Source: Alphaproteobacteria bacterium (GTDB lineage Bacteria; Pseudomonadota; Alphaproteobacteria; Bin95). Taken from it: DNA of 64,000 bases. The stretch is taken from the NCBI GenBank assembly GCA_965205265.1, contig CBDBGH010000003.1:5024001-5088000 (forward strand), written 5' to 3'. The position numbers and the translations under genes are program-made. Below, piece by piece: positions 21,981 through 41,957 of the stretch. Below the pieces are notes generated by a model. The model was not told the origin of the DNA and searched no databases. It was given only the letters and a program-made list of their open reading frames with translations. Numbering within the stretch: the stretch's first letter is position 1; each line of letters starts with the position of its first letter.

Positions 21981-24173
21981 TCAGCCGTTGCCCCGCGCCT
22001 CGAAGAGTCCGCCTCCGTGGTGGGACGTGCGGCCGAGCATGACAGGCCCGGCCTGGGCGGCCCGGAAGGTGAGCCGGACCCACGCGTCGATGCCGCCCCG
22101 CTCTCCCGTGACGATGGAGGTTCCGAGAATGTCGATCTTCTCGGCCGCGGGCAGCCGGGCCCGATGCATCTCGGTCCTGATGTCCTTCTCGACAAGGGCC
22201 GGAACCGGCCGGTTCCTTTCGATGAACCGGGTGACCCGATAGGGGGTAATCGTCTCCCATACGCGGCTCGGGACAAACAGCGGGTCGCTGTCGGCCCGGA
22301 CGGGGACCGGCTCGGTGCCCAGGACCCCTTCGGCGCCGGCGACGATCTCCCTCATGCCGGACACGGCCTGTTCCACGAGCCTGTGGCCCTCACCGATCTC
22401 GTCGGGGAAGTTGCCATCGGCATTGCGGTGACCGGGCGCCAGCCACAGGATGCGGCGGCGCGCGAGATCCGTGCAGATGAACACATGCCGGTGCCTGCCG
22501 TCGCGCGAGCGGATCGGGCCGCTCGAGTTGACCGGATGACCCGACACATAGGGTGGAAGCCGACGCCGGCGGCCGATCAGGTCCTGCGCGCGGGCCATCA
22601 TGGCCCGCCGCGCGGCCTGCGTGACGGCCATCGGGTCCGCATCCCGCCCGATATCGGAAACGATCTGCAGTGCCGTGATGCCGGAGGTCTGCTCCTCGGG
22701 GCGCATCAGCCCCAGCCCGAGAAACCGGCCGTCGCCGACAAGGACGGGACCGGAAACGGGTTTCGAGAACTCGATTTCGGCATGCCAGAGCCGGGACTGC
22801 GAGAACCGGGTTCCCGGTGAGAAGGAGCGCGAATGAAGCCCCTCGTTGTCGGGGGAGGTGCGCCGCACGGCAACGGACAGGGCCGGGATGGTGATGCCGG
22901 CATAGCGGAGCGCCTTCCGCACGGCCTGCACCGCATGCTGTTCGCCGCGCCTCACATCGGTGCCCGAGACGGCGCCGCGCTTCTCGCGCGGCCGCTCCGG
23001 CACCGCGATCGGGGTGACGGTGCGCCAATAGCGCGACCTGCCCTCGTACCGCTCGACCATGCGGCGGCTGCCGCCCGGGTGGAGTTCCGCCCGGACCGAG
23101 CCGTCTTCACGGGTCCACGCAATCTGGGAGAAAGCCCAGGAGACCTCGTCGCCGGGAATCGGGCAGGAGCGCGGCACATAGACGGCCACACGCCGGATCA
23201 TCATGTCGGAGTCCAGGTGGCCTATCGAGGGGAGGGGAACGATGCGCACCCTGGACAGGGCGTCGTCGCGCTGGACGCCGCGGCCGATCAGGAAACGCTC
23301 GACCGTGTCGGCGAGGTCGGGAGAGTTCTCCCGGATCAGCCCGGCGGCCCGGTCGCGGATATCCTCGACGAATGCCACCGCACGGTCGAGCGTGGTTGCC
23401 GAGTAACCGCGTCCCTCGCCGTCCAGGACGTCGAACAACAGGCGCTCGTCGGGCGTATTGTAGCGCACGGGTGCAAGCGCGGGCTTGGCGGGCTGCTCGA
23501 AGACAGCGACGTCGTTCCGGCCCAGGCGCTCGCGCGAAAAACGCGACAGGTTCTGCCTGTGACGCCTGCGCAGACTTTCGAGGGAGCCGGGTTTGGGGCA
23601 CAGCAGCGATGGCCCGGCGCGGCCCCGGTCGGAAGGGGTATAGACGACGATCCCGGGCTGCTGGAACAGGAGGTCGCGTTCCTCGGTGTCAATGATCTTC
23701 CCGGAACCCCAGGCCTGATCGAAACCCCGTCCGAGCTGGTAGATCGCCCTGGCCGCGTCGCAGACCTCCCGGGCGTAGCCGGTCCGGTCCCCGTTATTCC
23801 CGATATCCCAGCAATAGTGGATGGGGATGGCCTCATCGAAGATCCGGTATTGCTGCGGTTTCGGCACCTTGATCGAGGCAAGCGCCTCGTTGAGGTCCAC
23901 CGACGGCCCTCCCGGGATGGCGGAGTCCATGTCGTTGTTCGGGACATAGGGCGTGACGCCTTCATGCCGGGTCGCCGGCGGGGCGCCGATGACAGGCGGT
24001 GCGAGGCCCTCGAGCCAGCCGAGAGCCTCGAGCAGGCCGGGGCGGACGGTGCCGCCCTCGGCCGACCCGGCAATCAGCGCCTGGAACACACGGCCGGGCG
24101 CCGGAGGCCAGTCGCCCGTGCCATGGTAGCGTCCTTCGCCGAACCGGACGCTCAGGAGGAGGGACCGGCTCAT
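21981..24173 (-). CDS. csb2: Type I-G Csb2 (Cas5/Cas6 fusion)
   Basis: GRYHG..DWPPAPGRVFQALIAG; QLGRG; GPVLVGDGRFLGLGL and GPVMLGRTSHHGGGLF glycine-rich loops. Confidence 0.93.
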   Translation of the reverse strand: MSRSLLLSVRFGEGRYHGTGDWPPAPGRVFQALIAGSAEGGTVRPGLLEALGWLEGLAPPVIGAPPATRHEGVTPYVPNNDMDSAIPGGPSVDLNEALASIKVPKPQQYRIFDEAIPIHYCWDIGNNGDRTGYAREVCDAARAIYQLGRGFDQAWGSGKIIDTEERDLLFQQPGIVVYTPSDRGRAGPSLLCPKPGSLESLRRRHRQNLSRFSRERLGRNDVAVFEQPAKPALAPVRYNTPDERLLFDVLDGEGRGYSATTLDRAVAFVEDIRDRAAGLIRENSPDLADTVERFLIGRGVQRDDALSRVRIVPLPSIGHLDSDMMIRRVAVYVPRSCPIPGDEVSWAFSQIAWTREDGSVRAELHPGGSRRMVERYEGRSRYWRTVTPIAVPERPREKRGAVSGTDVRRGEQHAVQAVRKALRYAGITIPALSVAVRRTSPDNEGLHSRSFSPGTRFSQSRLWHAEIEFSKPVSGPVLVGDGRFLGLGLMRPEEQTSGITALQIVSDIGRDADPMAVTQAARRAMMARAQDLIGRRRRLPPYVSGHPVNSSGPIRSRDGRHRHVFICTDLARRRILWLAPGHRNADGNFPDEIGEGHRLVEQAVSGMREIVAGAEGVLGTEPVPVRADSDPLFVPSRVWETITPYRVTRFIERNRPVPALVEKDIRTEMHRARLPAAEKIDILGTSIVTGERGGIDAWVRLTFRAAQAGPVMLGRTSHHGGGLFEARGNG

Positions 24174-24177
24174 CGGG

Positions 24178-25257
24178 TCAGGCCGCCTCGTCGGCGGGGA
24201 GGCCGATATCGCGGCGGGCCCTCGCGCGCTCGTAGGCAACCGACCGGCTCGGCCCGACGCCCCATTCGGCCGCCGCGGCGCGGGCGACTTCGACCGCATT
24301 CCCGGCATTGAGGTCGAGCGCCTCGCGCTGGCCGTTATGCATCACGACTTCCCATGACGCCGTCCTGTCCGGATCCAGCGTCAGCAGGCAGCCCTGCCGG
24401 AGGAACAGGTTCGATGGCGTGGTGGCCGCGACAACAGCGAGGCCGAGCAGGTAGCGGCGCATGGCTTCGCCCTTCTCGCCGCGCAGGCGGCGAAGGGCCA
24501 CCAGGTTGATCGTGGTGGAGCGGATGATCTCGCCATGCACGATGACGCCGCCAAGCTCCTCGCCGACGCTCGGCACCGTGGAATAGCCGCGCCCGGAGAG
24601 GTCGTTCTTGTGCCTGACGGCCTCCTCGTCCGTCACGATGCCTTCCTCGCGAGCGGAGATGGTCGGATTGTACACGGAGCTGCGCTCGATTTCGTGGGCA
24701 TCGGTTGCCCGGATCACCGACTGGATGATCCGCGGAATCTTGACGCCGCTCGCGCGGGAATCCCAGCAACCGAACAGGGCCGATGTCGGGGCCATCTTGA
24801 CGAGTGCCGTATAGTCGTCGGCATCCTTGATCGTCAGGAAGATGGTCTGGATTTCCCGGTCGAGTTCCGTGCCGCGAAGGGTGGCGTCGGCGAGCCGGTG
24901 CGCGAAGGTCAGGATCGAGGCCACGCGGTCATTGCCATGCGTGACATCGATCTGCGGCACGAGATCCGCCAGAGGGTTCTCCTCGCCGTGCCGGCGCATG
25001 AAGACGGGTTCCATCTGGTTGGCCTGGCTCGCCACGCTGTCGATCGTCACGATCGTGCTGCCGTCGCCGAGCGTGTCGATGTTGTACCTCGACCTTTTCC
25101 CCGTCGGGTCCTTTTCGGACCGTGGATAGGACGGGGGGAAAATCACGGAGTGGTGGCCTTCGACCGGCATCAGCGCCTGCTGCAGCGTCAGCGCAACCGG
25201 GCCGTCGCGGTCGTTCGCGCAGAGCGTCGCGAACGCGGTATCGAATTCCGTTGTCAT
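24178..25257 (-). CDS. csb1: Type I-G Csb1/Cas7u backbone
   Basis: VIFPPSY, IDSVASQANQME, HRLADA, PTSALFGCWDSR, LRQGCLL. Confidence 0.93.
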   Translation of the reverse strand: MTTEFDTAFATLCANDRDGPVALTLQQALMPVEGHHSVIFPPSYPRSEKDPTGKRSRYNIDTLGDGSTIVTIDSVASQANQMEPVFMRRHGEENPLADLVPQIDVTHGNDRVASILTFAHRLADATLRGTELDREIQTIFLTIKDADDYTALVKMAPTSALFGCWDSRASGVKIPRIIQSVIRATDAHEIERSSVYNPTISAREEGIVTDEEAVRHKNDLSGRGYSTVPSVGEELGGVIVHGEIIRSTTINLVALRRLRGEKGEAMRRYLLGLAVVAATTPSNLFLRQGCLLTLDPDRTASWEVVMHNGQREALDLNAGNAVEVARAAAAEWGVGPSRSVAYERARARRDIGLPADEAA

Positions 25258-26141
25258 TGAGTCCTCTCTTCGGTTACCTGGTTGATGGACCTCGCCCGGT
25301 TCGGGCCCTGAGGTTCGCCGCATACGACGCGGAACAGGCGGAATGCCTGTCCCGGGACGACCGGTTTGCGCATGCCCAGGGCGGCGCGCAGGAATATCGG
25401 GTCGTGCAGCTGCCCGTTCTCGATTCCAGCGACGCCGTAACTGAACAGCAGCCGCGTGATATGGGCGGGCCGGGCATGCGTCAGGCCGATGGCTGCCAGC
25501 ACCTCCACGAGGGGGTAGCCTCGCGTGGTCATGGCCTTGCCATGGGCATTCAACGAGAAACCGATCTCGACCGGGATATAGTCCGACCGCCAGTCGAAAC
25601 GCATCCGGCGGCCGCCCACCCGAATGGACGACATCGAGAAAGGGTCTTCCGCATGGTCGAGAATGCCCTCGTCCCGGGCCGCCTCGAGACAGTGCTGGAC
25701 GATGAGGGCGCCGGGCGCCCCGCCCATCCCCGTCCAGAACTTCGCTGTCTCGCGTCGGGCCTCGTCGCCCCAATGGTCGATGACGATCCGCTGGGCGCCG
25801 TCGTCGAGCAGCGCAGGCAGCTTTGCCGGCGTATCGAGATGGGGCATCGGGAAGGCAATGCCCGGCGTAACCGAGGTCTCGACCTTCTCCGCCCAGCTGC
25901 CCAGCACGCAGGGAGAGCCGGGCGGCAGGAGCATCGAGACCCTTGCGTTGTCGAGAAACTCCAGCACCCTGCGGACCGGGTCCACCTCTCCGGGCGTCTC
26001 GATTTCGAACCGGCCTTCGGCTTCGCACCAGGAGAAGCCGCCCATGGCTTCGCCCGCAAGACTGTTGGCGGCCTCGAGAAATCCCAGGCAGGCAAAGACC
26101 TGGCCGGGATTCAGCAGGTCGACCGGAATCGACTGTCTCAT
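25254..26141 (-). CDS. cas8u2: Type I-G large subunit Cas8u2/Csb3
   Basis: IPVDLLNPGQVFACLGFLE...KFWTG...FDWR...GFS...VEVLAAIGL; ATGA-coupled on both sides. Confidence 0.88.
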   Translation of the reverse strand: MRQSIPVDLLNPGQVFACLGFLEAANSLAGEAMGGFSWCEAEGRFEIETPGEVDPVRRVLEFLDNARVSMLLPPGSPCVLGSWAEKVETSVTPGIAFPMPHLDTPAKLPALLDDGAQRIVIDHWGDEARRETAKFWTGMGGAPGALIVQHCLEAARDEGILDHAEDPFSMSSIRVGGRRMRFDWRSDYIPVEIGFSLNAHGKAMTTRGYPLVEVLAAIGLTHARPAHITRLLFSYGVAGIENGQLHDPIFLRAALGMRKPVVPGQAFRLFRVVCGEPQGPNRARSINQVTEERTQ

Positions 26142-28894
26142 CGGTAGGCCTCCTCGATGGCCGCCTGGAACTGCGCGCGCGAGGCGCGGTAGTTCGCCGA
26201 GCGCAACAGGGATTCCCACCACGCCAGTCCCCATGGTCCCCAGATGCGTTGTTGCCGCGCATAACGCTGTGCGATCGCCAGGCCTTCGGTGGCGGCGTGC
26301 CGGGGCGGGAGGTCATCGGCGCCCTTGATGCCTATGACCGGACGGGCCTGGCCGTGATGCGACGCGATCAGGTGCAGCGCCAGCTCGAAGCGCGGGTCGT
26401 CCCGGGCAAGATCGAGGCCGTTCCTCGCCGCCAGAACTGTCGAGACGAACTCGTGGCGGTAGCGCGACAGCATGCTTCGTTTCAGGCGTTTGGCGGACTT
26501 GGCGTAGGGGTTTGCCGCCCAGTCCGAAGGCACGCCATAGGCGCGCTGCCACCGCCGCACGGCCTTGCCGTCGTCGTGGTGACGCGCCGCGGTGACCAGC
26601 ATGGCCCTGTCGGCCGCCTGTAAATCCAGGGCATCGGCGATATGGGCGGCTTGACCGCATACCTCGCGCACATGATCCTGGAGCGTTTCCGCCTTCAGCG
26701 AGGTGGCCCGGTGCCGTTCGCCGGACTCCGCTCCGTCGCGCGCCTGCACGGACAACCAGCGCAGGGGCATCTCGTCTTCGTCCAGACGCCACACGAACGC
26801 ATCGATTTCCTGCCATACGACGCCGTCCTCGACGATGGCGCCGCGGTCGGCTCCTGTGGAGACGCGGATCCGGTAGGGCGAGGCCGGAAGGTCTCCGGAG
26901 GCCTCGTTCCCTAGGCCCCAATTGTCTTCGGGGGTCGAAACGGCGGTGTCCGCCTTGATATCCAGGTGGCCGGCGGCGAGCCCGCCAAGACGGGCATCGA
27001 CGACGAGACGCCGTCCCCATAGCCGCCGGCTGAAATTGTCCTGCGCGGCCCGTGAGGCCCGCGACAGGTTAATCAGGTCCCGGTGGACGAGCATTTCCCG
27101 AAAGCTGCCGCTCTGGCTGAGCACCACGGCGACCGGTGCGTCGGGGCGCTTGAGCGGATAAAGGTCGTCATGGACCGGTTCGGGTTCGGCGGTTGCGCCC
27201 GCGACTGCCGCCACCCTGGACAGCAGCCAGGCCAGCACGTCGGCGCTGTCGGCCCAAAGGGTTTCGGCCTGCAGTGATCGGGCGGCCTCGAAAAAGGTCT
27301 CGACATGGTAGCCGTAGGGTGGGGAAAAACGCCGTCCGCGGTCCGTGTCCTGCATGATGACCGGCAGATAGTGGCGCCAGAGCACGGATGTGCGCGGCGC
27401 GCGTTCCTGCCAGCCATGCAGCCAGGGCCCTATGCGAGGCCGGCCGGTATGGGAGAAAAGGGATGTCATGGACCAGGAATCGACTGTCGCCCGTTCCAGG
27501 TCCGGGTAGAGCGGCACGGACGGGGCGGCGGCCCGGACGGACCGGCGAAGGTCCTGACACCGGTAGATGGCCGACAGGGCTTCGGGTCCGGCCTTCACCA
27601 TATCCGCTCCGGCCGGCGGGAGGCCGGAGAGCAGGGAGCGCACGGCGGTGATCGCGGGGTCCACCCGTTTTTCGTCCGCGGTCCTGTCGATGACGGCAAT
27701 GCGCGCCGTGCGGTCGCCGCTGCGCCCGACCCGGCCGAACCGGCGCACCATGCGCGGCCAGTCGCCCACAAGGTCGCAGACCATGGCGTCGGCGTCGAGA
27801 TCGCTGGCGATTTCCCCGGCCAGGGTGGAAATCAGGAAGCGCGGAGCGTCCATGTCGCGGGGGCGGCCATCGCCTGTAAAGCCGCTCTCTGCAAGCCACT
27901 CCGAAAGTTCGCGGCGCTCGCGGGTGCGCTGGCCCTCGAGCAGGAGGGCGGAATGTCGGCCCGCCGGCTTTTTCCCGAGATACCGGTTGATGCCGGCCAG
28001 GATGCGCAGGGCATCCTCACGCGCATCGACGAAGATCAGGATGCGCCGTTCCCCGTCCTCCGCATACGCCCGCGCCCGGTCCACGACTTCGGAAGCGAAG
28101 GCGGCGCCCCGCGCCGGACAGCCATGGACCGACAACTCCTTGTCGGCTGCCAGGCGCTTGGCGATAACCGGATGGGACAGGTCCTCGGCTTCCAGGGTGA
28201 AGAGGCCGGTAGTGGCGCGGTTCACCTGGCCCGAGCTCGCCATGGCCATGACGCGCAGCCCCGGCAGGAGATGCCTGTTGGCCGAATCCGGGGCGCCGAA
28301 CTCATGGGCGCCACGCTCGATTCGGCGCAGCAGGCTCTCGAAAGACGGCATGAGGTCGCGGTCATCGAGCACGATCAGACAGTCACAGGCGAGATTGGCG
28401 GCGGCCAGGGACCGCACGGAGCGATGAAGCCCGTATCCGCTGAAGAGCAGGGCCGAGCCGATCATGTCGACGGAACCGACTATGACCGACGGCAGGTGGG
28501 GATGATAGAGCCAGTCCGAGGAATCGACCCAGGCGCCGCGGAGCGTCGCGATGGGCAGATGTCCGTCCTCGTCCAGACCGAGGCCCTTCCGCAGGGCTTC
28601 CGAGCCCTGGACGGCGGCATGGGCCGCCTCTGCAAGTGCTGTCGCCCGGTCGATGACCGCGGCGCTGTGCACGACATAGGCAAGGCGGCGCGGCACGGGA
28701 GCCCCGGCGGCTCGCGCGGCGAGCCAGACGGCCATCACGGAAGCGCGTCCGCTTCCCGCCGGAATATCCACGACGGGCGGAACGGCACCGCCCATGAAAC
28801 CGTCATGAAGACGTTCGTGCCAGGGAAGGGGCGGGTGCCCGGTTACAGCCTCGAACAGTGCGCTCAATGATGGATTTCCGGCTTTCTGCTGCAC
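26138..28894 (-). CDS. cas3: Type I-G Cas3 (helicase + C-terminal HD) with degenerate catalytic motifs
   Basis: I-G architecture with C-terminal HD (LQDH, HHDDGK, RHE, HHG, GPWGLAWWESLLR); Walker A GSGRA, motif II LDDRD; GTG start at 28894 after a GAGGA RBS. Confidence 0.92.
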   Translation of the reverse strand: MQQKAGNPSLSALFEAVTGHPPLPWHERLHDGFMGGAVPPVVDIPAGSGRASVMAVWLAARAAGAPVPRRLAYVVHSAAVIDRATALAEAAHAAVQGSEALRKGLGLDEDGHLPIATLRGAWVDSSDWLYHPHLPSVIVGSVDMIGSALLFSGYGLHRSVRSLAAANLACDCLIVLDDRDLMPSFESLLRRIERGAHEFGAPDSANRHLLPGLRVMAMASSGQVNRATTGLFTLEAEDLSHPVIAKRLAADKELSVHGCPARGAAFASEVVDRARAYAEDGERRILIFVDAREDALRILAGINRYLGKKPAGRHSALLLEGQRTRERRELSEWLAESGFTGDGRPRDMDAPRFLISTLAGEIASDLDADAMVCDLVGDWPRMVRRFGRVGRSGDRTARIAVIDRTADEKRVDPAITAVRSLLSGLPPAGADMVKAGPEALSAIYRCQDLRRSVRAAAPSVPLYPDLERATVDSWSMTSLFSHTGRPRIGPWLHGWQERAPRTSVLWRHYLPVIMQDTDRGRRFSPPYGYHVETFFEAARSLQAETLWADSADVLAWLLSRVAAVAGATAEPEPVHDDLYPLKRPDAPVAVVLSQSGSFREMLVHRDLINLSRASRAAQDNFSRRLWGRRLVVDARLGGLAAGHLDIKADTAVSTPEDNWGLGNEASGDLPASPYRIRVSTGADRGAIVEDGVVWQEIDAFVWRLDEDEMPLRWLSVQARDGAESGERHRATSLKAETLQDHVREVCGQAAHIADALDLQAADRAMLVTAARHHDDGKAVRRWQRAYGVPSDWAANPYAKSAKRLKRSMLSRYRHEFVSTVLAARNGLDLARDDPRFELALHLIASHHGQARPVIGIKGADDLPPRHAATEGLAIAQRYARQQRIWGPWGLAWWESLLRSANYRASRAQFQAAIEEAYR

Positions 28895-28967
28895 CTGTCG
28901 TCCTCTGTCTCGGTGTTGGACCAGAACGTCCCTTGCGACGCTAAAACGCTTGTCACCCTCATAAATC

Positions 28968-28996
28968 ATAATACGAATATAATTCGTCCCTGTCAA
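28968..28996 (-). promoter_or_regulatory. Sigma70 promoter of the cas operon
   Basis: TTGACA (28996-28991), 17-bp spacer, TATTAT (28973-28968) in an AT-rich patch. Confidence 0.85.
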
Positions 28997-29039
28997 CCCG
29001 CCGGCCGTGTGGTGCGATTTGTTGTTTTTTGTCATGGTG

Positions 29040-29063: not shown

Positions 29064-29178
29064 AGCCTTCAGGTCATGACGGCGCCGGGCGATATTGAAG
29101 GGCATTGTGATTCATGAGCCGGTCTGCTGATCGGCGATGGTTTCACAACCGGAGCGGATGCTCCGGTCTCATTGATGT
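29064..29178 (+). CRISPR. Single-spacer degenerate mini-array (crRNA-like regulator, CreR-type)
   Basis: Pseudo-repeat ending ATTGAAGG (29094-29101), about 38-nt spacer, then a second repeat with stem ACCGGAGC-GGAT-GCTCCGGT and CTCATTGATG; spacer 5' end matches the cas promoter. Confidence 0.82.
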
Positions 29179-31898: not shown

Positions 31899-32930
31899 CT
31901 ATCCGGGCCCGGGCGCATCGTCGAGGGCGGGCCCGGAGCCATTGTCCGGAAGGCGGACCGGACGGTCGGCCGCCCGGAATTGCACCGTCTGCCGGACGTC
32001 TTCGTTGACTTCGAGCAAGGCCCCTTCGCCTGCCGAAAAGACAATGCGGGCTTCGGCGTCGATGTCCTGGCTCCAGCGGGGGAAATGACAATCGACAACG
32101 CGCCGCGCGATTTGCTGGAGAGCGCGCCTGAATGTCATGTCATCCAGATCGCGCCGTTCCCCGAGAACCACGTCGAACATGCCCCGGACGGTTATGGCGT
32201 CAAGGTTGACCTCCGGGTCGGGGCCATCGGCGGCCGCAACCATTGCCATATTCCCGAGGTGGACCCTCTCACCCGGGTCGCGGCTTTCCAGGAAAACGGA
32301 GATGGTATGGATGCCGGCGTCCTGCATCGCCTCGGTAAGGCAGGCGAGATTGTGACGATGGCCCTCCTGCGCCAGACGCCGGTGAGCGGCCTCGCGGGGT
32401 TCGTTGCGAATTTCCTCGTCCGAAAGCGGGGCAAGCAGCGGGGTCTGTTTCCAGGCCTCGGACGTCCACTGGAGGTCGGCCCGTTGGAGCCGGATGTCCG
32501 CTTCGTTCGTGCGGACGGTGATTTCGGCCTCGCCGCCGAAGTCCTCGGACCAGCCGGAATACGATGCGTCGAGCACCTCGTCCAGAGTGTGTTGCAGCGC
32601 CTCCACGAAGCTGAGCGAGGACATGGGTAGCCGGGCCCACCGGCCCGACTGCCCGTGAACCAGTTGCTGGAGGCCCGACACGGTGATCTGTGGCGGCCGG
32701 TCCGTCAAAGGCTGGCCCGAGGCCGGAACATAACGGACCGGGCCGACGGTCACGTTGCCTTCGTGGCCGGAAATGCAGGCCTCGATCTCGGCTATGCCCG
32801 CAATCTGCATGAAGCTCGTCAGCACCGCGAGATTATGGCGGGCGATGACGGCGGGGAGATCGTCGTCGGTCGCGGGGCCCGGTGGAGTCCTGAAATAGTG
32901 GGCTTCGGAGATGCTGCGTTCGCTGGGCAT
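31899..32930 (-). CDS. Tandem-domain DUF6878-like paralog
   Basis: Two copies of HNLA.L...M..AGI..I...(Y/F)..WS(E/Q)D..(G/A)EA.I. Confidence 0.7.
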   Translation of the reverse strand: MPSERSISEAHYFRTPPGPATDDDLPAVIARHNLAVLTSFMQIAGIAEIEACISGHEGNVTVGPVRYVPASGQPLTDRPPQITVSGLQQLVHGQSGRWARLPMSSLSFVEALQHTLDEVLDASYSGWSEDFGGEAEITVRTNEADIRLQRADLQWTSEAWKQTPLLAPLSDEEIRNEPREAAHRRLAQEGHRHNLACLTEAMQDAGIHTISVFLESRDPGERVHLGNMAMVAAADGPDPEVNLDAITVRGMFDVVLGERRDLDDMTFRRALQQIARRVVDCHFPRWSQDIDAEARIVFSAGEGALLEVNEDVRQTVQFRAADRPVRLPDNGSGPALDDAPGPG

Positions 32931-32995: not shown

Positions 32996-34027
32996 TCATG
33001 GGCCGTCCGGCCCGGCCGGTTCGCGGGCTCCGGAAGGGAAGGCCAGTTTGACGCCCAGCACCTCCGCCAGAGGGGCCAGGGTCCGGGAAAGGTCCGGACC
33101 CGGGCCTTCCGGACCGATCTGGCCGAGTATCTCCTCCGGAACGGCGACGACGGTCTGTCCGTCGGATCCGTCCTCCAAGCGGATGGCGTGGAGTCTGTCC
33201 TCGAGACCGGGCGAAAGCGCCGGAAGCGCGGCCCGGAATTCGTCGCGGATCCGGGCGCGCAGAAAGCCGTCGCGCCATTGAAGCATCCGGTCTTCCCCGT
33301 AGGTCCGGGACATGAAGTCCATGGCGTCGAGGGCCGCCTGTTGCGCCTCTGGCTCGCCGACCCGGATGGCCAGGTCGAGCAGCGAGAGCGGTGCGCGCTC
33401 CCGGATGACCTCGCGCACCGGTTCCAGCTTTTCCCAAACTTCCCGGGGCGCGCCCCCGTAGGGAACGCCGTCCCACACGAAGACCTCGTGCCAGATATCG
33501 CCGACCCCGACCCGGGGACGTTCGGTCGGCGGGAGCAGGATACAGTATTCGCCGGGCGCATCGACGGGCTCGAACCCGTCGATATTGCCGCGGTTCACGC
33601 CGGACAGGGCACAGACGGCCGTGAATGCCGGGATGCCGCCGTCCCCGAACAGCGGCACGGAAGGACCGTGCCCGGGTTCGTTCAAACAGCCGACCAGCGG
33701 CATGGTTTCGTCGAGCCAGGAACGCAGGCCCCTCACGGCCTCGCGGGACCGCCACAGGATATCGCCGACCGGGCCGTGCCAGTCGAGGTCCCGGCTTCCC
33801 GGGTCCAGGCCCGCCTCGGCGCCCTCGAGATCGCCGGCGGCGTCGAGAAGCCGGATGTTCTGGTCGCCGGTCCGGTCGACATAGTCGTCCATGACCCTGT
33901 TCAGCGCCCGGACGTCCTCGAGGCCTGTCTGCTGCGAGCGCCCGATCGTGCCGTGCAGGCACTCTTTCAGGCGTTCCGTAGGATCGGCGGCGGTCGAGGC
34001 GGCGGCTATCGTCGAGGCTCTGGCCAT
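32996..34027 (-). CDS. Hypothetical protein
   Basis: 343-aa acidic ORF with GGAG RBS, co-oriented with its neighbours. Confidence 0.7.
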   Translation of the reverse strand: MARASTIAAASTAADPTERLKECLHGTIGRSQQTGLEDVRALNRVMDDYVDRTGDQNIRLLDAAGDLEGAEAGLDPGSRDLDWHGPVGDILWRSREAVRGLRSWLDETMPLVGCLNEPGHGPSVPLFGDGGIPAFTAVCALSGVNRGNIDGFEPVDAPGEYCILLPPTERPRVGVGDIWHEVFVWDGVPYGGAPREVWEKLEPVREVIRERAPLSLLDLAIRVGEPEAQQAALDAMDFMSRTYGEDRMLQWRDGFLRARIRDEFRAALPALSPGLEDRLHAIRLEDGSDGQTVVAVPEEILGQIGPEGPGPDLSRTLAPLAEVLGVKLAFPSGAREPAGPDGP

Positions 34028-34114: not shown

Positions 34115-35107
34115 CTAGAAGAACGGCGGTTCGTATTCTTCCTCGGGCAGCGGTTCGCCGGCGTCCAGGGAGCGCCAGATGTCTTCAGAGAACCGGCTGC
34201 GCGACGGGATGGAAAGGATAGCGGGCCGACGGTCGGCATCCTTTCCTACATAGACGCTGGTCGCGAGCCAGTCGCTTTCGGCTTCCGGGTCGTCGGTCTC
34301 TATCCACCACACCTTGCCGGCCGGCAGATGGTCCGGGCGCCAGTGATAGCCGCGGTCCTTCATGACCTCGCGCGCCTGGAACGGGGCGCCTTCCGCGCAG
34401 ACCAGCCAGCGCGGCGTCTTGGCGGCGGTGTACATCTCCGCGAACAGGGGATGGCCGTCCGGCGACCGCCGTGTCAGGAGTCCGAGGACCGCCCGGCAAT
34501 CCTCGAGGGCATCGTGCGGGTTGTAGAAGAACCCGAATTCGGTGGCCAGACTCTCGAGGCTGCGGGAATTGAAGCCGTGGTCCTGCCACGCGATATCCTC
34601 CAGCGAGCAGGCCCAGGAACGATTCCTGAAGACGGGCCAGTGTTTTTCGACCATGGGCCGGTCAAAGGAGGCGTGATGGGCGACAATGATGTCCGCCTGT
34701 TCGACCAGGGTCTGGACCTTGCGGGTGTTGACGCTCTTTCCCTGAAGCATTTCGGGGGTGATGCCATGAACCGCCTGGGCTGCCGGGTTCATTTCCACCT
34801 TGGGCTCGCGCAGGCCGACATAGGTCGATTTCTCGCCGGCCACGCAGAGGCGGCCGGTCGACGGCTCAAAGGAGAACGGCAGGAGCGCAAGCTGGATCAC
34901 CTCGTCATAGGACAGGTCGGTACCCGTGGTTTCGGTATCCACCACCAGGCCGATCGCCCGGGGGGCTCCGGTAGGCTCGTCGAGCTGCCTGGGAAGTTTC
35001 AGCCTGCGAAGCAATTTCCAGTCTTCGGGACCGGCTTCGGGGTCGGGGCGGATAACGGCGGTGTTCGGGATGGAAAAGATATTGTCGGGTTGCAGCTGTG
35101 CGCCCAT
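34115..35107 (-). CDS. DEDDh 3'-5' exonuclease (DnaQ/epsilon-like)
   Basis: VVDTETTG, VAHHASFDRP, HDALEDC. Confidence 0.9.
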   Translation of the reverse strand: MGAQLQPDNIFSIPNTAVIRPDPEAGPEDWKLLRRLKLPRQLDEPTGAPRAIGLVVDTETTGTDLSYDEVIQLALLPFSFEPSTGRLCVAGEKSTYVGLREPKVEMNPAAQAVHGITPEMLQGKSVNTRKVQTLVEQADIIVAHHASFDRPMVEKHWPVFRNRSWACSLEDIAWQDHGFNSRSLESLATEFGFFYNPHDALEDCRAVLGLLTRRSPDGHPLFAEMYTAAKTPRWLVCAEGAPFQAREVMKDRGYHWRPDHLPAGKVWWIETDDPEAESDWLATSVYVGKDADRRPAILSIPSRSRFSEDIWRSLDAGEPLPEEEYEPPFF

Positions 35108-35491
35108 TCGGTCCTCCGGATTCGGCGGGTCTTGGAGCGAAGCTAGGTCCGGGCGGTGAAAATTCAAAAAGCGAAGGGACGGTGCCGTCGGGCGGAGCTT
35201 GCACCGGAAAGTTTCGGGCTGCACATTATGCGCCCCTCGCTCGCGCCCCTGGGTGCGGGGCGGGGCCGTTGTTTGTCAGCGTCGATCAATCGCCCGAAGC
35301 TGCGGCCGCGAAGCGAGCGGTCTGGCGGCGCCGGAACCCCCGGGGCCGCTCGAAAGTGTTACGGGACAAGGCTTCCAGGTCCGAATTCCGTGTTTGCGCG
35401 CGTCCAGGAAATGCCAGGACGGGTCATATCCGGAGGACCGCTCGAAAACTGGCCGCCCGAGCCTTGTCAGGCAAGGCTTTTCGAGGCGGCT

Positions 35492-36261
35492 CTCTCCCCG
35501 GCGTGATCGCCGGGTTCCCATTGAAGTCGCGCGAATCGAGCCGGCAGACCCAGGCATTCGTGAAACTCTCCCCGGCGTGATCGCCGGGTTCCCATTGAAG
35601 TGAGACGAGATGAACAAGGCAGCCTGGGATCGTTACGCACTCTCCCCGGCGTGATCGCCGGGTTCCCCATTGAAGTGCATCCGATTGCGCCAAAGCTCCA
35701 GCGCTTCGGCTCCTCTCCCCGGCGTGCTCGCCGGGGCCCCACATTGAAGTTCGTAGTAACAGACGTTTTTCGGCGGGCCCTTGGTGACCTCTCCCCGGCG
35801 TGCTCGCCGGGGTCCCCATCATTGAAGAAGCCGTCAACAGGATGCCGACGATGACGAGCAGCGCCGTGCTCGCCCCGGCATGATCGCCGGGGCTACCATT
35901 GAAGCGGTCAAATATGCCACCGCATAGCGAGCCCAAGCAGCCCCCACGCCGGCCTGCGGGCCGGATGCATACATTGAAGCCTCGGCAAACGCGTTTCGGA
36001 GCCACCGAATGTTCGGAAGTTTGCCCGGCCTCCGGGCCGGACACATTGAAGCCCTCATATTTCCGCCGCGGCAAGGCCCTCCGGGCAGGGCACTCGCACA
36101 TTGAAGCCGCCCCGAATCCCGGCAAGCTATGGTTCAATCGAAGAGATCTCCCCGGCCTCTGGCCGGGCACACCACACCACACATTGAAGGTAGGCAACAC
36201 CAGGCTTGATTGCCCCCTGGTTTGCCGGCCCCGGCGAAACTGCCGGGGCTCGAATTGAAGC
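35492..36261 (+). CRISPR. Type I-G CRISPR array, 11 repeats / 10 spacers, progressively divergent repeats
   Basis: 36-bp repeat CTCTCCCCGGCGTGATCGCCGGGTTCCCATTGAAGT at 35492 and 35566; variants at about 35640, 35713, 35789, 35869, 35941, 36020, 36071, 36146 and 36224, all ending ATTGAAG. Confidence 0.95.
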
Positions 36262-36353
36262 AACTGCGCCGCCCGGCGACGGTCGGTTTATGGACGCGGC
36301 GCGCAATGTCGCGTATCTGCGCTGCGGTCTGCCCGTGGCCGGGAGATGCGTAC

Positions 36354-36767
36354 ATGCCGGAATTCTCATTCAGGCTTGAGGACTATGCGCATTTCATCCG
36401 TGCCAACGGATCGGACCGGGACGGGATCTACCGCAAACTGGTGCATGAGATTCCACGGTTCCTGATGGCTCTGCACCCCGACCGTAGAGCGGAGGTTCTG
36501 GCGTCGGCGCCGAGCCTGACAGCAACAGGCTGGGACGCCCTGCTTGCAGGAGTTGCCGAGCATCTTGCCGGCTTGCATGGCCTTCCGGTCCCGGAGTGGT
36601 GCAATGAGCCGGGACGGTTCATCGATCCGGTCTGGATCGTCTGTCCGGCGGTTGCCGAAAGGGCGCGTTTCGCGCCGCCGGCATTTCTGCGCCACGGTGC
36701 CCTGCCGGACCCGATGGATCTCGATGAAAGGGGGGGAGAGGCCGTCCCCTTCCGGCCCGAGCCCTGA
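36354..36767 (+). CDS. Hypothetical protein (TA-associated-like)
   Basis: P.LT..GWDALLAGVAEHLA...PEW....RF...W...PPAFLRHG. Confidence 0.65.
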   Translation: MPEFSFRLEDYAHFIRANGSDRDGIYRKLVHEIPRFLMALHPDRRAEVLASAPSLTATGWDALLAGVAEHLAGLHGLPVPEWCNEPGRFIDPVWIVCPAVAERARFAPPAFLRHGALPDPMDLDERGGEAVPFRPEP

Positions 36768-36791: not shown

Positions 36792-37532
36792 CTACGGGAT
36801 GACCTCCGCGTCCGCTTCGGGCGGTTCCGGTACCAGGAAGACCGGGAGCTCTCTGGCTATCGACTCAATGCGCCAGCCGAACTCGAATTTGGCAATATCC
36901 GGCGTGACGGTGATCGTGCCGGCGCTGCCCTCGCCGAGCTCCCAGCCTGGATAGTGTTCGTCGGCAACCTCGACGGCGAACGCCTCGCATATGTCGGTGA
37001 GGGTCTCCTTGCCCAGGGAGACCGGGCCCATGTCCGGCGGCGTCGTGGCCAGCAGGTCGCCAAAACCCCGATCTCCGTAACCGCTGACCTGAAGCCGGAT
37101 TTCCATGATGCCGTGCTTCTGCATCGCGTGACGGAGGAGGCCGAGAGGCTCCGCGGTTCCCGTGAGCAGAACGGGAGTCTCGGCGGTGTATTTTTCGTCG
37201 TTCCAGCCGATCTCGAGCCGGGCTTCGTCCGGGGTGACGGTGATCGCGCCGCTGCCGCCATCGCCCAGTTCCCATCCGGGATAGCAGTCGCTCGTTATGT
37301 CCGCCCCGAAATGCTGGCAGAAGTCCTCGAGCGTGCCGCCGTCGATCTCGATGGCCCCGGCCTCCGGGGGATCGATCGCCTCCAGCTCGGCGTGTCCCTG
37401 ATCGTTGTAGCCGTTCACCGCGATACGGACGGTGGCGATTCCATGGGCGCGCATGACGTTCTGGAGGTCGCCGAGGCCGGCCGCCTCGACGGGTTCAGGC
37501 GCTTGCGCCGAAGTGGATTCCTGATGTTCCAT
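36792..37532 (-). CDS. Tandem DUF6878-like protein
   Basis: Two copies of M..HGI..(V/I)...GY(N/G)D.G...YPGWELG.G..G.ITVTP. Confidence 0.8.
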   Translation of the reverse strand: MEHQESTSAQAPEPVEAAGLGDLQNVMRAHGIATVRIAVNGYNDQGHAELEAIDPPEAGAIEIDGGTLEDFCQHFGADITSDCYPGWELGDGGSGAITVTPDEARLEIGWNDEKYTAETPVLLTGTAEPLGLLRHAMQKHGIMEIRLQVSGYGDRGFGDLLATTPPDMGPVSLGKETLTDICEAFAVEVADEHYPGWELGEGSAGTITVTPDIAKFEFGWRIESIARELPVFLVPEPPEADAEVIP

Positions 37533-37541: not shown

Positions 37542-38253
37542 CTATGGCCCATGCTCCGCCCGGGGTTCACCCGGGCCGGACAGGAGCGGGATAATCCGGT
37601 AATCGATTTCCGGGCGGCGCCACGCGAACCGGAGCGCCGCCTCGTCCTGCGTGAGCAGGATTGTTCCCGTGCTCCCGGCCCCGTCCTTCCACCGGGGATA
37701 CAGGGTATCCAGGACGTCGGTCGACAGGCGCTCGACAAAGTCCTGGAACCGGGTGCCGGCGATGTCGCTGTCGGGCGGACGCGGCCAGGGTCCGTCCATG
37801 TCGTCGATCTCGGCATAGCCGTCGCCGCGTCGTCCGTGAAACGCCACTTCCATGCCGGAGATCGCGTTGAGCTGCATCCAGGAGTGCAGCCGCCCGAGAG
37901 CGCGGGCCGTACCGGCCGGCATGCGGGGATGGTCCCGAAGGCCGACGGACTCGATTGCCGCCGGCGCCATCCGGCGCTGTCCGAACTCGATAACCGCGCC
38001 GTCGGCAAGGACGGCAATGCGCCCGTGGCTGCCGTCATTGACCTCCCAGCCGGGAAAATCGGCCTCGATGACGTCCCGGATGACATCATCGGCGAAGGCG
38101 AGGGCAATCCGCTCGAGTTGCGGGTCATGGGTCCCGGAACCGGGCGCGGGCCTGACGACGGATACCTCGCCCTCGTCGCCATAGCCGTCGATCTCGATCT
38201 CCACGATTTCATCGCCGGTCTCGTGCATCCGGTCGCGGAGTGCCGCCAGCCGG
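37542..38253 (-). pseudogene. Tandem DUF6878-like gene, 3' part, interrupted by IS21 #2
   Basis: DGYGDEG...FPGWEVNDGSHG; joins in frame to 42340..42382. Confidence 0.82.
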
Positions 38254-38347: not shown

Positions 38348-39241
38348 TCATCTGATTGGGCGGTCATCGGTTTCGAGCGGCTCGCCGTCGCGGTCACGGA
38401 TGAGCATGTCGTTCCAGTCCTGGTTTTCGAGGGCCGGTCGCATTCGGACGATTCTTGTGTCGTTGTCTTGCATGCGGCGGGCGGCGTGATCGCCGTATCG
38501 TGTAGCGTCCCAGGCACAGAAGATACGGCGCGGGTTCCAGGCCTCGACCCATTTGGGGATTCTGGCCGTGATGGCGCCGGTGGAGACGACGGCGCATTTG
38601 CTGCGTTTTTCCGGGACGAGGTGGAGGGAGAGGATCGACAGGGCGTCGAGGGCGCTGCCGGTGAGGATGACGGTGCCGGGCCAGTCGGGCTCCCATGACA
38701 TCCAGAAGCCGCCGTCTGCGGCCGGCTCCTGCGCTGCGGGGAGGGTCTCTATGCCGACCACCTTGCTGGCGGCGTTTCGGCGGAGGAACACGGGATTGCC
38801 GCGCCGGTCGGCACGGATCAGGCCGAGGCCTCGGCATAGCTCGACGAGCGCGTCGGCGAGGCCGCGCTGCTCGATGAGGTATTGCCGCAGCGCCGGCCAG
38901 CGAGGGTCCTGGCACGAGGGCTCCGCCTCACAGCGACTGTTCGGGAGCCGTGAGTGGCGCGGCAGTTGGGCGAGGAAGTCGAGGGCTTCGGTCGTTGGGC
39001 ATCCGAGCGCATGAACCGCCAGCTGGATGGCCCCGGCGCCTCCCTCTCCGCGCAGATGGTCGTAGAACATGAAGCGGTTGATGGAGAGGACCGAACCGGC
39101 TCGTCTCCAGCGCGCGGCATCGGCGGGATCGCGGCGATAGCCGAGGGCGTGGACCACGTCTTCGAGGGGGCAGCTTCGCAGCCCCTCGGCCCGCAGGCGG
39201 CGATCCCATGGATGCAGATGCTGCACGGCTGGCTCAGGCAT
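38348..39241 (-). CDS. IS passenger: DUF3991/Toprim-like protein
   Basis: [38 protein letters not shown]...GD..A, QDWNDML. Confidence 0.7.
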
Positions 39242-40019
39242 CCCCCGTGTCTTGCGCCGTGCTCTTGCCCGCTCCTTTTGCCGATCGCCGCCGGCGGCGA
39301 TCGGCGCTGCGCTGCTTCTGGCGTTCCTCGGCCTCCTTGCGGCGGTATGAGTCGCCGTCGATGGCGAGGATCTCGGCATTGTGGACGAGCCGGTCGACAA
39401 GGGCCACGAGGCAGGCGGCGTTGGGGAAGGCCTCGCTCCACTCGGCGAAGGGGCGGTTTGTGGTGATGATGGTGGAGCGCTGCTGGCTGCGGCTTGAGAC
39501 GATATTGAACAGCAGGTCGGCATGACGGTTGGAGTAGGAGAGATATCCGACTTCGTCGATGACCAGGAGGTGCTGGCGGGCGTAGAAGCGCAGCCTGCGC
39601 TGGAGCATTGTGTCGGAGTCGATGGCGGCGAGCTCGCCGAGCAGGCTGGCGGCGGTTGCGAAGCGCACGGTGTGGCCTTCGAGGACGGCGCGGTGTGCGA
39701 TATTGGCGGCGATTGTGGACTTGCCGACGCCGTTGGGGCCGATGAGGACGACATTGGCGCCCTCGCGGAGGAAGTTGAGGGTCATGAGGTCCTCGACGGC
39801 CATGCGGTCGCATCGCCTTGGCCAGTCCCAGTCGAAGTCGGCGAGCGGCTTGAACTGTCCGAGGCGGGCGGCGGTGAGGCGTCGCCTGAGGCTTCGGCTT
39901 CGCCTCTCTTCCTCTTCCCATGCGATCAGGGGCGGGAGCCAGTCGCGCTCCGCAACCTCGCTCCAGTGGGCGAGGAGGCCGTGCAGTCCGAGCGCCGTGG
40001 CGCGGTCCTTGAGGGTCAT
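39234..40019 (-). CDS. istB: IS21 helper ATPase IstB
   Basis: [36 protein letters not shown]. Confidence 0.95.
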
Positions 40020-41521
40020 TCTTCGCTGTCCTCCTCGTGGTGGCTTGCGAGCCCGTCGTATCCGCCGAGGTCGTGATCGCGGACCGCGATATCGCGCAGT
40101 CTTGGATCGCCGGGCAGGTCGATGGGGATGGGTGGTGGCTCGTTGCGCTGTTCGCGCCGCCGGTTCAGGCTGAAGCGCACCGCATTGGGATGGGGGACGC
40201 CGCGCTCAAGGGCTTCATCGATGGCGGCTTCGAGTTCGACGGCTCCGTAGTCGTCGAGCAGGCGCAGCAGGGAGGCGACGGTTGTGCCGATATTGCCGCC
40301 GCGCCTGGCGGTCTCGGCAAGCAGGCGCTCGCTGTCGGGGGCGGCCTGGAGAAGGCGGCTCTGCCCGCGCAGGCGGTGGGCGTGACGTTTGAGCCTGACC
40401 AGCTCCTCGATGTGCTCGGGGGTCTCGATGCGGGCCGCCTTGTCGAAGCTGCGCGGATGACGGGCGACGGTGTCGGCGCCGTCGAGGATGCGTACCTCCT
40501 CCAGTGTCGCGACCACGGTGAGGGTGCGCCGCGTATGGGTATGCGGGACGCTATAGTCATTGAGGTCGAACCTGGCGTAGGGGGTCTTGCCGATCCTGAC
40601 CTCGACCCTCTCGTCGACGGGGGGCCGGTCGTCGGGCAGCGCCATCAGGGAGCCGCGCTCGCGCTCGAAGGCCTCGCGCACGGTGAGGGAGCGGTCGTCC
40701 GGCCAGCGACGGTCGGCGGCGACGCCGTCGCACCAGGCGCGGGCCCGGGCGTTCAGGTCGTCGAGGTCGCGCCAGGCGCGGGCGGCGAAGAAGTTGTCGC
40801 GCACATAGCGTATGGCGCGCTCCACGCGCCCCTTCTCGTTGCCGCGCGCGACCGCGACCGGCTTGGGCAGGAAGCGGTAGCGGGCGGCGAAGTCGAGGAG
40901 CCGGGGGTTGAACCGGATGGCGTCGCCCTGGCGCTCCAGCACGACGCTCTTCAGGTTGTCGTACCATAGCTCGCGGGGCACGCCCTGCCAGGCCTCGAAG
41001 GCCTCGACATGGCCGCGCAGGAAGTTGTCCATCGCGGCATTGAGGTAGAAGTGCAGGAAGATGCGGCGCGAGTAGCTCAGCACCATCACGAAGCCCATCA
41101 GCGGGCGCTCCGCGCGCCCGATCCTCACCTTGCCGAAGTGGGCCCAGTCCACCTGGGCCAGCTCGCCGGGCAGGGTCTTGAGGCGCAGATAGGCCTCGGC
41201 CACAGGCCGCGGGCGCTCCGGCGCGATCATGCGCCGGAAGTGGCTCTGGCTGCCCCGGTAGCCGCGCTCGACCGCCATCTGGTAGAGCCGGCTGGCTGGC
41301 AGCCTGGGCCAGACCGCCAGGGTCTGGCGGATGAAGGGCCGGAACGGATCGATCATCGAAGCCCTGCGCCGCCTCTCACGCGCGGGCGCCCCGGCGGCCG
41401 CTACCGCGCGCTCGACCGTGCCGTGGTGGACGCCGAGCTGGCGCGCGATCGTGCCGATCCTCCACTTCTCGGCAAAATACAGCCGCTGGATCTCGGCACG
41501 GGTCTGCTTGTCGATCGCCAT
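40016..41521 (-). CDS. istA: IS21 transposase IstA
   Basis: PGELAQVDW, LWYDNLKS, NEKGRVER; start at MAIDKQ. Confidence 0.95.
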   Translation of the reverse strand: MAIDKQTRAEIQRLYFAEKWRIGTIARQLGVHHGTVERAVAAAGAPARERRRRASMIDPFRPFIRQTLAVWPRLPASRLYQMAVERGYRGSQSHFRRMIAPERPRPVAEAYLRLKTLPGELAQVDWAHFGKVRIGRAERPLMGFVMVLSYSRRIFLHFYLNAAMDNFLRGHVEAFEAWQGVPRELWYDNLKSVVLERQGDAIRFNPRLLDFAARYRFLPKPVAVARGNEKGRVERAIRYVRDNFFAARAWRDLDDLNARARAWCDGVAADRRWPDDRSLTVREAFERERGSLMALPDDRPPVDERVEVRIGKTPYARFDLNDYSVPHTHTRRTLTVVATLEEVRILDGADTVARHPRSFDKAARIETPEHIEELVRLKRHAHRLRGQSRLLQAAPDSERLLAETARRGGNIGTTVASLLRLLDDYGAVELEAAIDEALERGVPHPNAVRFSLNRRREQRNEPPPIPIDLPGDPRLRDIAVRDHDLGGYDGLASHHEEDSEE

Positions 41522-41522
41522 C

Positions 41523-41957
41523 TCACTCCCTTCGCGCCTGGCGCAGGCCCGGATAGACCGCCAGGCCGCAGAACCGACCGCAGCGCTCGCAGCGGAACAC
41601 CCGGGCGGGACGGTCGGGCCCGAAGGGCCGGGTTCCGGACCGCCCCGCCGGTATGCGCGCCACATCAGGACGCCGGCGCGCGACGGTCAAAGGGTGATGC
41701 GTCACTTTCTGCGCGATGGCCCGAACTGCCGGCTGCCGCACACGGCGCCGTTCGCGGTAGCGCCGCTGGCGCTCGGCATGCTTGTGACGGCCCCGGCGGC
41801 TGTTCTGGTAGCGCTGCCCCGCAAGGCGCACCGACCGACGCCGCGCCCGCCCGCTGCAACGCGGCGAACAGTAGATATGGCCAGAGTCGCAGCGCCGGCA
41901 GAGAACCACCTGGCGGCGGCACAGGGCGCAGGTGAACAGGCGGGCGGCGTTCCTCAT
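41523..41957 (-). CDS. Cys-rich basic IS21-associated protein
   Basis: CALC...CRRCD.G.IYCS.RC and Arg-rich helix upstream of istA. Confidence 0.65.
   Translation of the reverse strand: MRNAARLFTCALCRRQVVLCRRCDSGHIYCSPRCSGRARRRSVRLAGQRYQNSRRGRHKHAERQRRYRERRRVRQPAVRAIAQKVTHHPLTVARRRPDVARIPAGRSGTRPFGPDRPARVFRCERCGRFCGLAVYPGLRQARRE

Follow-up and report, generated by a model that had tools for sequence, protein, structure and literature searches.

Type I-G CRISPR arrays have been described for Thioalkalivibrio sulfidiphilus (PMC9638904) and Bifidobacterium animalis (bioRxiv 10.1101/2022.08.19.504415). In the available text of these reports they combine repeats of ~36 nucleotides (nt), a GC-rich hairpin of 7–8 base pairs (bp), the terminal motif ATTGAAG (hereafter the handle), spacers of ~36–40 nt, a leader and a dedicated set of cas genes. 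Here we analyse an array that is alike in all of these respects, located at positions 35492..36261 (+ strand) of a 64,000-nt stretch (the window) of contig CBDBGH010000003.1 (5,024,001 to 5,088,000; assembly GCA_965205265.1) from an alphaproteobacterium of the Bin95 lineage. Unlike the canonical arrays, 10 of its 11 repeats are distinct, the eighth handle base varies, the linker between stem and handle measures 4–15 nt, cas4/1 and cas2 are missing, and the helicase motifs of Cas3g are substituted. We judge it slightly better than an even bet that this is a slow-turnover I-G array of a rare derivative, which lacks adjacent adaptation genes, has lost the Cas3g helicase motifs and lets its repeats drift under constraint from the effector.

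The array comprises 11 head-to-tail units on the + strand, each closed by ATTGAAG (11/11; starts at 35520, 35594, 35669, 35743, 35821, 35898, 35973, 36045, 36100, 36183 and 36254). Successive motifs are 74, 75, 74, 78, 77, 75, 72, 55, 83 and 71 nt apart, giving units of 71–83 nt with one exception of 55 nt. The window contains 15 copies of ATTGAAG where 3.3 would be expected; none of 100 shuffles reaches this count, and 11 of the copies are inside the array. The repeats R1–R11 occupy approximately 35492-35527, 35566-35601, 35640-35676, 35713-35750, 35789-35828, 35869-35905, 35942-35980, 36017-36052, 36068-36107, 36148-36190 and 36223-36261 (+), and their longest perfect stems are 7, 7, 7, 8, 8, 8, 6, 6, 5, 7 and 8 bp. 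Among 20,000 random 36-mers of the same genome, stems of at least 6, 7 and 8 bp have probabilities of 0.054, 0.016 and 0.005, respectively, and the ten spacer windows form stems of merely 2–5 bp. Consistently, the 30 nt before the handle fold with a mean energy of −15.7 kcal/mol, compared with −4.5 kcal/mol for spacer windows and −7.1 kcal/mol (standard deviation 3.4) for the 30 nt before 266 other genomic ATTGAAG sites. Folding energy over 40 nt was dropped as a test because random 40-mers already average −11.8 kcal/mol, and perfect-stem length was used instead. Full-length spacers measure 36–40 nt. Spacer 8 (36053..36070, +; start at 36052 or 36053) has only 18–19 nt and accounts for the 55-nt unit, and the linker of R10 carries a threefold CACAC expansion (36168..36182, +) that leaves 15 nt between stem and ATTGAAG (14 nt to the preceding C). 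We conclude that the 11-unit array is a genuine CRISPR array and not a product of chance. An earlier sequence-only reading had described the same layout, with R1 equal to R2, every later repeat different, a stem in each and an invariant ATTGAAG, together with a ~19-nt spacer and the CACAC expansion in R10. All of these are present, and the stem arms that it listed were found exactly.

R1 and R2 are identical, R3 differs from them by one additional C, and R4–R11 are each unique. Two blocks can be distinguished: a younger one (R1–R6, 35492..35905, +) with at least 75% mutual identity outside the handle, and an older one (R7–R11, 35942..36261, +) whose members share 47–65% identity with any other repeat outside the handle and retain a stem and ATTGAAG. 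In the pairwise identity matrix, the positions of R7–R11 outside core and handle are near saturation. Identity between repeats drops with their distance along the array (Spearman −0.46, permutation p = 0.0034). With the functional part defined beforehand as R1’s own 7-bp stem plus the 8-nt handle, departures from the consensus fill 25/220 cells inside this part versus 54/150 elsewhere (Fisher p = 2.8e-8); a narrower core picked post hoc gives 6/170 versus 73/200 outside. Because change concentrates outside stem and handle, both look constrained. The stem core CCGGC...GCCGG is common to 10 of the 11 aligned repeats, R9 being the sole exception. When pairing is scored on R1’s structure, the five core pairs are nearly constant, and the outer pairs are present in some repeats and absent from others; the only clearly covarying pair is an inner one that flips (CG 4, GC 4, GU 1), and the covariation score of the array is reached by about 15–18 of 500 shuffles. 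The eighth handle base reads T, T, T, T, A, C, C, C, C, G and C from R1 to R11, and the gap between stem and ATTGAAG, 4–15 nt long, differs in sequence between units. The sequence-only reading had proposed hairpins that diverge in sequence yet keep pairing. Pairing is indeed kept, but the stems are not unlike one another, as shown by the core that ten of them share. Selection to keep old units processable, which it also proposed, draws its support from the placement of the changes and, weakly, from compensatory substitutions.

The leader (35272..35491, +) links the array to other I-G loci. Its 220 nt align with the sequences that precede the genome's canonical I-G array, three orphan arrays and an array in a relative from the same genus (G002); the last matches window positions 35327-35489 at 71% identity. 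The leaders have in common GAGCGG, two copies of CCGCTCGAAA and, shortly 5' of the first repeat, a CCTTG..CAAGG hairpin, which occupies 35459-35473 in the window (CCTTG, 5 nt, CAAGG) and is conserved in 6 of the 7 leaders compared. A scan of 35000-36500 for sigma-70 promoters and intrinsic terminators found none, a result that is uninformative at such GC content.

For comparison of the repeats, we gathered 48 distinct repeats from other I-G loci, 36 of which, in one register, were used for a covariance model. The last nine bases, CATTGAAGC, are invariant in all 48, and the preceding three bases vary little, being mostly GCC followed by T or C. The 8-bp hairpin of the 36 loci covaries strongly (97.2% of cells paired, 66 changing both sides, 0/500 shuffles). 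This model finds 7 of the 11 units (R4, R8, R6, R1, R2, R3 and R5, E ≤ 0.015), including the entire younger block, with scores of 16–27 bits. About 47 bits are reached by L114/L115, one locus seen twice that represents the closest array-bearing relatives and has uniform repeats. The model gave no match at R7, R9, R10 or R11, and R8 alone matches within the older block. Other tools fall short as well, in line with the earlier prediction that standard finders would miss the last units: Tandem Repeats Finder (TRF) reports 2.5 copies, a generic repeat search 6–7, and Rfam shows no match on the window at gathering thresholds or on 35300-36400 at E ≤ 1. Of the handle expected for I-G, ATTGAAGC, the seven bases ATTGAAG are present in 11/11 units and the eighth base is C in 5/11, versus 48/48 elsewhere. 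The array does not keep the four-nt linker of the family (CC, T or C, C). In R1, a 5-nt gap separates the 7-bp stem from the ATTGAAGT that follows. This arrangement resembles the repeat of the Thioalkalivibrio I-G enzyme, for which the available text gives a 7-bp stem, a gap of 4 rather than 5 nt and an 8-nt handle, with Csb2 cutting in the linker (PMC9638904). Genes for cas3g-cas8g2-cas7g-csb2 in the GSU0051-0054 form lie on the opposite strand, 6.5 kb from the array. In L114/L115 the array likewise points away from cas3g, with cas4/1 in between; in the window this place is taken by a Fic gene, a Dam-type methylase, a DUF6878 gene, an unknown open reading frame (ORF) and a DEDDh exonuclease. 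The homologous leader, the I-G cas genes at a distance of 6.5 kb and the match of 7 of the 11 units to an independent model assign the array, by sequence, to type I-G. Most arrays of 80 I-G genome loci are uniform (mean repeat identity 0.97–1.00); the exceptions are L033, L068 and the second array of L087. In L033, which lacks cas4/1, a five-unit array stands directly upstream of cas3g.

The four cas genes, all on the − strand, are cas3g (26138..29035; TIGR02621, 3.3e-135), cas8g2 of the Csb3/GSU0052 type (25254..26234; TIGR04106, 1.3e-50), cas7g or csb1 (24178..25251; TIGR02570, 4.9e-32) and csb2, a cas5-cas6 fusion in the long three-domain form (21981..24308; TIGR02165, 7.4e-83); the start codons of cas7g and csb2 are not fixed. 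The reading frames are intact, with about 2,420 codons free of stops and frameshifts, and the GC content at third codon positions is of coding type (0.79–0.85). In a comparison with 79 relatives, 239 columns are at least 90% conserved, and Cas3g breaks the consensus at 54 of them; the other proteins do so at a median of 6. Counts near or above that of Cas3g come only from L049, whose match is over-long, and L072, which is truncated. The departures cluster in the helicase motifs: GLGKT of motif I is replaced by GSGRA, DRR of motif Ia by HSA, DEAH of motif II by DDRD, SAT of motif III by ASS, and QRxGRVNR of motif VI by RRFGRVGR. In the HD domain, the last aspartate (motif V) is changed to asparagine (D948N), with the other HD residues (H, HD, H, HH) kept. 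One closer relative, a metagenomic protein with 50% identity (P0001), emerged from 5.8 billion proteins searched. It has likewise lost motifs Ia, II and III, carries an identical motif VI and D-to-N change, and retains GKT. Among 145 full-length representatives of 50%-identity clusters, P0001 is the only one without four of the five motif patterns. The best Cas3g relative in genome and metagenome contigs reaches 41% identity, and none was found in viral contigs; nor did 160 related loci yield a close relative. The sequence-only reading had assumed a catalytically dead system. For the helicase of Cas3g this assumption is supported by the loss of motifs I, Ia, II, III and VI and of one HD aspartate, most of it shared by P0001, and the helicase appears to be switched off.

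Csb2 aligns over its full length with a profile of 72 relatives and differs at 18 of 100 conserved columns (median 4). The substitutions H469Y and H695F hit near-invariant histidines, and H509 and D526 are retained. Two relatives, P0025 (74% identity) and P0026 (51%), also lack the histidine at 695, which is present in 57 of 58 aligned family members, and the tyrosine at the second near-invariant histidine is found in the window’s Csb2 and in P0025. Catalytic residues given in the available reports are H503 (PMC9638904) and, for the Bifidobacterium enzyme, H520/D530 (bioRxiv 10.1101/2022.08.19.504415); by position, H509/D526 may match the latter pair. PDB sequence searches with Csb2 and Cas3g returned no match. 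A C-terminal extension of Csb2, considered as a novelty, was ruled out since all 72 relatives have one. Cas7g, differing at 20 of 94 conserved columns (median 2), and Csb2 are unusually diverged, and Cas8g2 (3/48) is not. As the derived losses are shared with relatives at 50–74% identity, we argue that the state with a motif-dead Cas3g and an altered Csb2 has been maintained and is not a recent accident. Adaptation genes are missing: cas4/1 and cas2 are absent from the locus, and the window contains no Cas1 match, the nearest lying about 37 kb past its end. Among the 160 related loci, Cas4/1 is found within the flanks of 89.

The genome also carries a canonical I-G locus, 1.6 Mb away, with cas4/1 and a uniform array of 34 units (mean identity 0.99), in which a pattern scan detected altered repeats only among the last three. 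R1 is 59% identical to the canonical repeat and has the same ATTGAAG handle. At least four more heterogeneous arrays, of 5, 3, about 25–30 and 3 units, lie within about 260 kb past the window and share the handle and homologous leaders. These orphan arrays (G000 C3: 5137100-5137290, 5227438-5227801, 5280014-5280231 and 5293308-5295713; also 5308578 and 5317861) have heterogeneous repeats, with mostly G as the eighth handle base. In the largest, stems differ from block to block, and truncated repeats and mutated handles occur; 16 of its 25 units fold at −12 kcal/mol or below, as do 47% of random 40-mers. The orphan arrays neighbour IS66 and IS21 transposases, a RecQ helicase and an antitoxin, and no further match to the Csb2 or Cas3g families was found in the genome beyond the window and the canonical locus. 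Because at least four other arrays are likewise heterogeneous, heterogeneity is a trait of the repeat family in this genome and not of one array. Two orphan units (C3 5293608-5293717) resemble R4/R5, with 83–84% identity over about 40 nt. No spacer is common to any two I-G-type arrays of the genome; its type I-C arrays share many. The type I-C-like array pairs (period 67; C3 3251072-3254933 and 4047038-4050072) hold many identical spacers in the same order, which suggests a large duplication that included a CRISPR locus. Two spacers of the canonical array match the genome itself: spacer 19 at C3:5102687-5102722 (33/36 nt), 15 kb past the window, and spacer 6 at C3:3788604-3788638 (31/35 nt). 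The flanks of these sites are CTC and CAG, not TTN, and the sites are likely integrated elements once targeted by the canonical system.

Four public sequencing runs containing the sequence come from near-identical strains. The array is complete in X3, represented by fragments in X5 and X6, and one unit short in X4, which jumps from 35491 to 35566 and thus lacks the leader-proximal unit, exactly the one flanked by the identical repeats R1 and R2. The difference is a recent spacer gain, presumably by way of the Cas4/1-Cas2 of the canonical locus, or a loss between the only two identical repeats. The latter would suit the resistance of diverged units to recombinational loss proposed in the sequence-only reading, and both fit equally. 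With the leader end differing between near-identical strains, the description of the guides as fixed in the sequence-only reading is doubtful.

The search for targets used 11 spacers, counting the stretch that follows R11 besides the 10 internal spacers. A search of the 5.7-Mb genome for 5'-anchored seeds of at least 11 nt flanked by a TTN protospacer-adjacent motif (PAM) gave 2 matches of 12–13 nt, and shuffled spacers gave as many or more, of up to 12–15 nt. The guides of regulatory mini-CRISPRs match their targets only partly. The best plain match in the host is 19 nt long, at the PAM-distal end of the GC-rich spacer 5, and the other plain host-genome matches are short, GC-rich and at chance level. 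When the whole array was compared in distant mode with 72,556 plasmids and 50,697 phages, all matches had E ≥ 0.06; the most notable was spacer 3, 23/23 nt in the TraV gene of two Delftia plasmids (E = 0.8). In 60 relatives, including all 36 genomes of the order, the array is absent, the leader alone recurs in G002 and no significant protospacer was found; the further matches to the array region are to the start of the downstream gene (G010, G011 and G015) and, weakly, to spacer 5.

Based on these structural and comparative data, we propose a plausible history for the locus as a slow-turnover array. Normal arrays stay uniform, since each new repeat copies the first one and old units get lost. 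If new units were rare or no longer added for want of a local integrase, repeats would not be homogenised, and every repeat would age and drift. Purifying selection from the effector alone could then hold the 5-bp core CCGGC/GCCGG, gripped by the Cas6-like part of Csb2, together with ATTGAAG, and leave the 5' flank, the loop, the linker and the last handle base free to change. Diverged repeats would in turn block recombination between repeats, so that the old distal block persists by survivorship, with no selection for stability needed. The CRISPR RNAs (crRNAs) would most likely guide a Cascade of Cas8g2, Cas7g and Csb2 to foreign DNA; Cas3g, proposed to be unable to translocate, would leave this DNA bound and perhaps nicked through the HD domain rather than shredded. 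The canonical I-G locus has an array with a homologous leader, and its Cas4/1-Cas2 probably provided the most recent few spacers in trans. Several points weigh against this history. Transcription and processing of the crRNAs are themselves sequence-based predictions, and H469Y and H695F in Csb2 mean that the array’s own processing enzyme may be inactive. The departures of Cas7g and Csb2, far above those of relatives, could signify general decay. A ruler-type nuclease and a Cascade of fixed size may not tolerate gaps of 4–15 nt and a spacer of 18–19 nt, and some distal units may accordingly be defective. Compensatory change within the array is thin, no spacer has a target in the host, plasmids, phages or relatives searched, and conservation of the distal units between strains is uninformative because the strains compared are near-identical. 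Finally, the identity of R1 and R2 and the X4 polymorphism would require adaptation in trans.

The main rival is that the locus is a relic, in which array and cas genes are losing function and core and handle are simply the last to go, or the units were defined by them. Decay would account for the departures at conserved columns in Cas3g, Cas7g and Csb2, the missing adaptation genes, the short spacer, the variable linkers and the microsatellite expansion; the largest orphan array of the genome is clearly decayed, and no close relative turned up among the 160 loci. However, the cas genes run through about 2,420 codons without a stop or frameshift, and the losses in Cas3g and Csb2 are common to relatives at 50–74% identity, which indicates that the state persisted through long divergence. 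Moreover, all 11 units keep handle and stem although the other positions of R7–R11 are near saturation, and the degenerate arrays of L033 and L087 preserve their stems much less well than the window array. We therefore regard a relic as a real possibility, but a distinctly minority one. We offer a bolder reading with slightly more reserve still, as a tentative suggestion: that the locus represents a small undescribed I-G derivative, present in at least three lineages (this genome, the source of P0001 and P0026, and the source of P0025), in which the adaptation genes are lost and a helicase-dead Cas3g and a changed Csb2 would serve guided DNA binding from nearly frozen guides. P0026’s longest contig measures 302,850 bp, the same as P0001’s.

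Divergence in place is also not the only way in which unlike repeats could have come together, since an array might be stitched by recombination between I-G arrays of this genome or of incoming elements. At least four other heterogeneous arrays with homologous leaders could have served as donors, two orphan units are 83–84% like R4/R5, R11 is closer to R6 than to its neighbours, and the surroundings are rich in transposases and mobile-element genes. Against such a mosaic, which we think improbable, R7–R11 are as unlike each other as they are to everything else and would need five donors, no spacer is shared among the I-G-type arrays, and identity declines with distance as in growth from one end. 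The sequence-only reading had instead seen fixed regulatory guides that steer a nuclease-dead complex onto host genes, in the manner of CreR/CreA. The lost helicase motifs of Cas3g, a separate mini-CRISPR-like element in the promoter region of cas3g and the degenerate repeats, which are typical of regulatory mini-CRISPRs in the accessible text of PMC9458426, would all suit it. The seed search speaks against this use, as PAM-flanked host seeds are no better than those of shuffled spacers; one unit differs between near-identical strains, and a normal leader, 11 units and full-length spacers of 36–40 nt contrast with the one or two degenerate repeats of the known modules as described in that text (PMC9458426). 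We accordingly hold regulatory guides to be very improbable. Least credible to us is an RNA decoy, by which a mobile element’s repeat mimics would soak up the Csb2 and Cas7 of the canonical I-G system, like RNA anti-CRISPRs (Racrs). The canonical handle and the hairpins are kept, the region looks mobile, and spacer 19 of the canonical array matches C3:5102687 in 33 of 36 nt. Racrs are solitary repeat mimics on viral genomes according to the available text of PMC10651486. Against a decoy, the window array has a leader, normal-length spacers and its own Cascade genes nearby. R1 is only 59% identical to the canonical repeat, and the units score 16–27 bits where L114/L115 repeats score about 47.

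The DEDDh 3'-5' exonuclease gene (34115..35224, −) abuts the leader and is recognised by Pfam RNase_T (5.8e-15), the PADLOC CRISPR-associated DEDDh model (7.7e-27) and an NCBIfam 3'-5' exonuclease family (4.6e-75). A protein atlas search for the unknown ORF at 32996-34027 gave no usable match. The mini-CRISPR-like element (29094..29175, +) lies 59–140 nt upstream of cas3g and is divergent from it. Within it, ATTGAAGG precedes by about 37 nt a hairpin that resembles a repeat, has a 7-bp stem and a 4-nt linker and ends in ATTGATG; the I-G repeat model scores 13.5 bits at 29149-29175 (E = 0.1). Comparable solitary repeat-like units stand upstream of cas3g in L034, L112, L113 and L114/L115. The best anchored match of the element within the window is 10 nt, without a PAM, and no target was found for it there. 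At least six paralogous DUF6878 genes flank the array (31899-32930, 36792-37532, 37542-38228, 42407-43144, 43162-43914 and 47656-48465, all −); tblastn detects more copies nearby, and an IS21 element (39234-41665) is inserted among them. The window also contains two Fic genes, two HipA genes and further transposases. An ORF of 814 amino acids (60427-62871, −) matches Cas9 (TIGR01865, 1.1e-54; model positions 206-661 of 1070) and has an HNH_4 domain; its product may be a type II effector in short or truncated form.

Should the crRNAs be produced and used, the array would reveal the small set of repeat positions that an I-G effector needs, and it would be a natural multi-guide array of non-identical repeats, as engineered elsewhere against recombinational collapse. 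If, further, the locus belongs to a small derivative, its drift would amount to a natural mutational scan, with a 5-bp stem core and seven handle bases as the minimal determinants, and the system might silence or nick rival mobile elements with old guides that diverged repeats allow to persist. If crRNAs are not made, the locus would be a well-documented example of CRISPR decay after loss of the adaptation genes.

Ordinary degeneration at the trailer end of arrays usually affects the last one to three repeats. The window array is similar in that its newest repeats are identical and divergence increases towards the trailer, but it differs in that 9 of its 11 repeats are affected, five of them near saturation, and stem and handle persist throughout. 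With CreTA/CreR it shares degenerate repeats. In the available text on CreTA, such repeats still work with Cascade and their degeneration stabilises the module against recombination, so that the recombination-stability principle proposed in the sequence-only reading is already published (PMC9458426). CreTA/CreR modules, as presented there, have one or two ectopic repeats and a partly matching pseudo-spacer aimed at a nearby promoter; the window array has 11 units, a leader and no detectable self-target, and the element at 29094-29175 looks more like CreTA/CreR than the main array does. The 2025 CRISPR classification, in its available main text, does not contain the term “I-G”; the variants that it describes lost Cas3, and an I-G variant with a motif-dead Cas3g is not mentioned in that text (PMC12669027). 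The CRISPR-associated transposons (CAST) and types IV-A, V-M and V-C covered there resemble the window locus in having lost the adaptation module and destructive effector activity (PMC12669027). According to the same text, these systems lost Cas3 altogether or belong to other types, whereas the window locus keeps a full-length Cas3g with replaced motifs (PMC12669027). Provided that its crRNAs are made and used, a type I system that retains a full-length, motor-dead Cas3 would represent another route to a CRISPR system that only binds its target.

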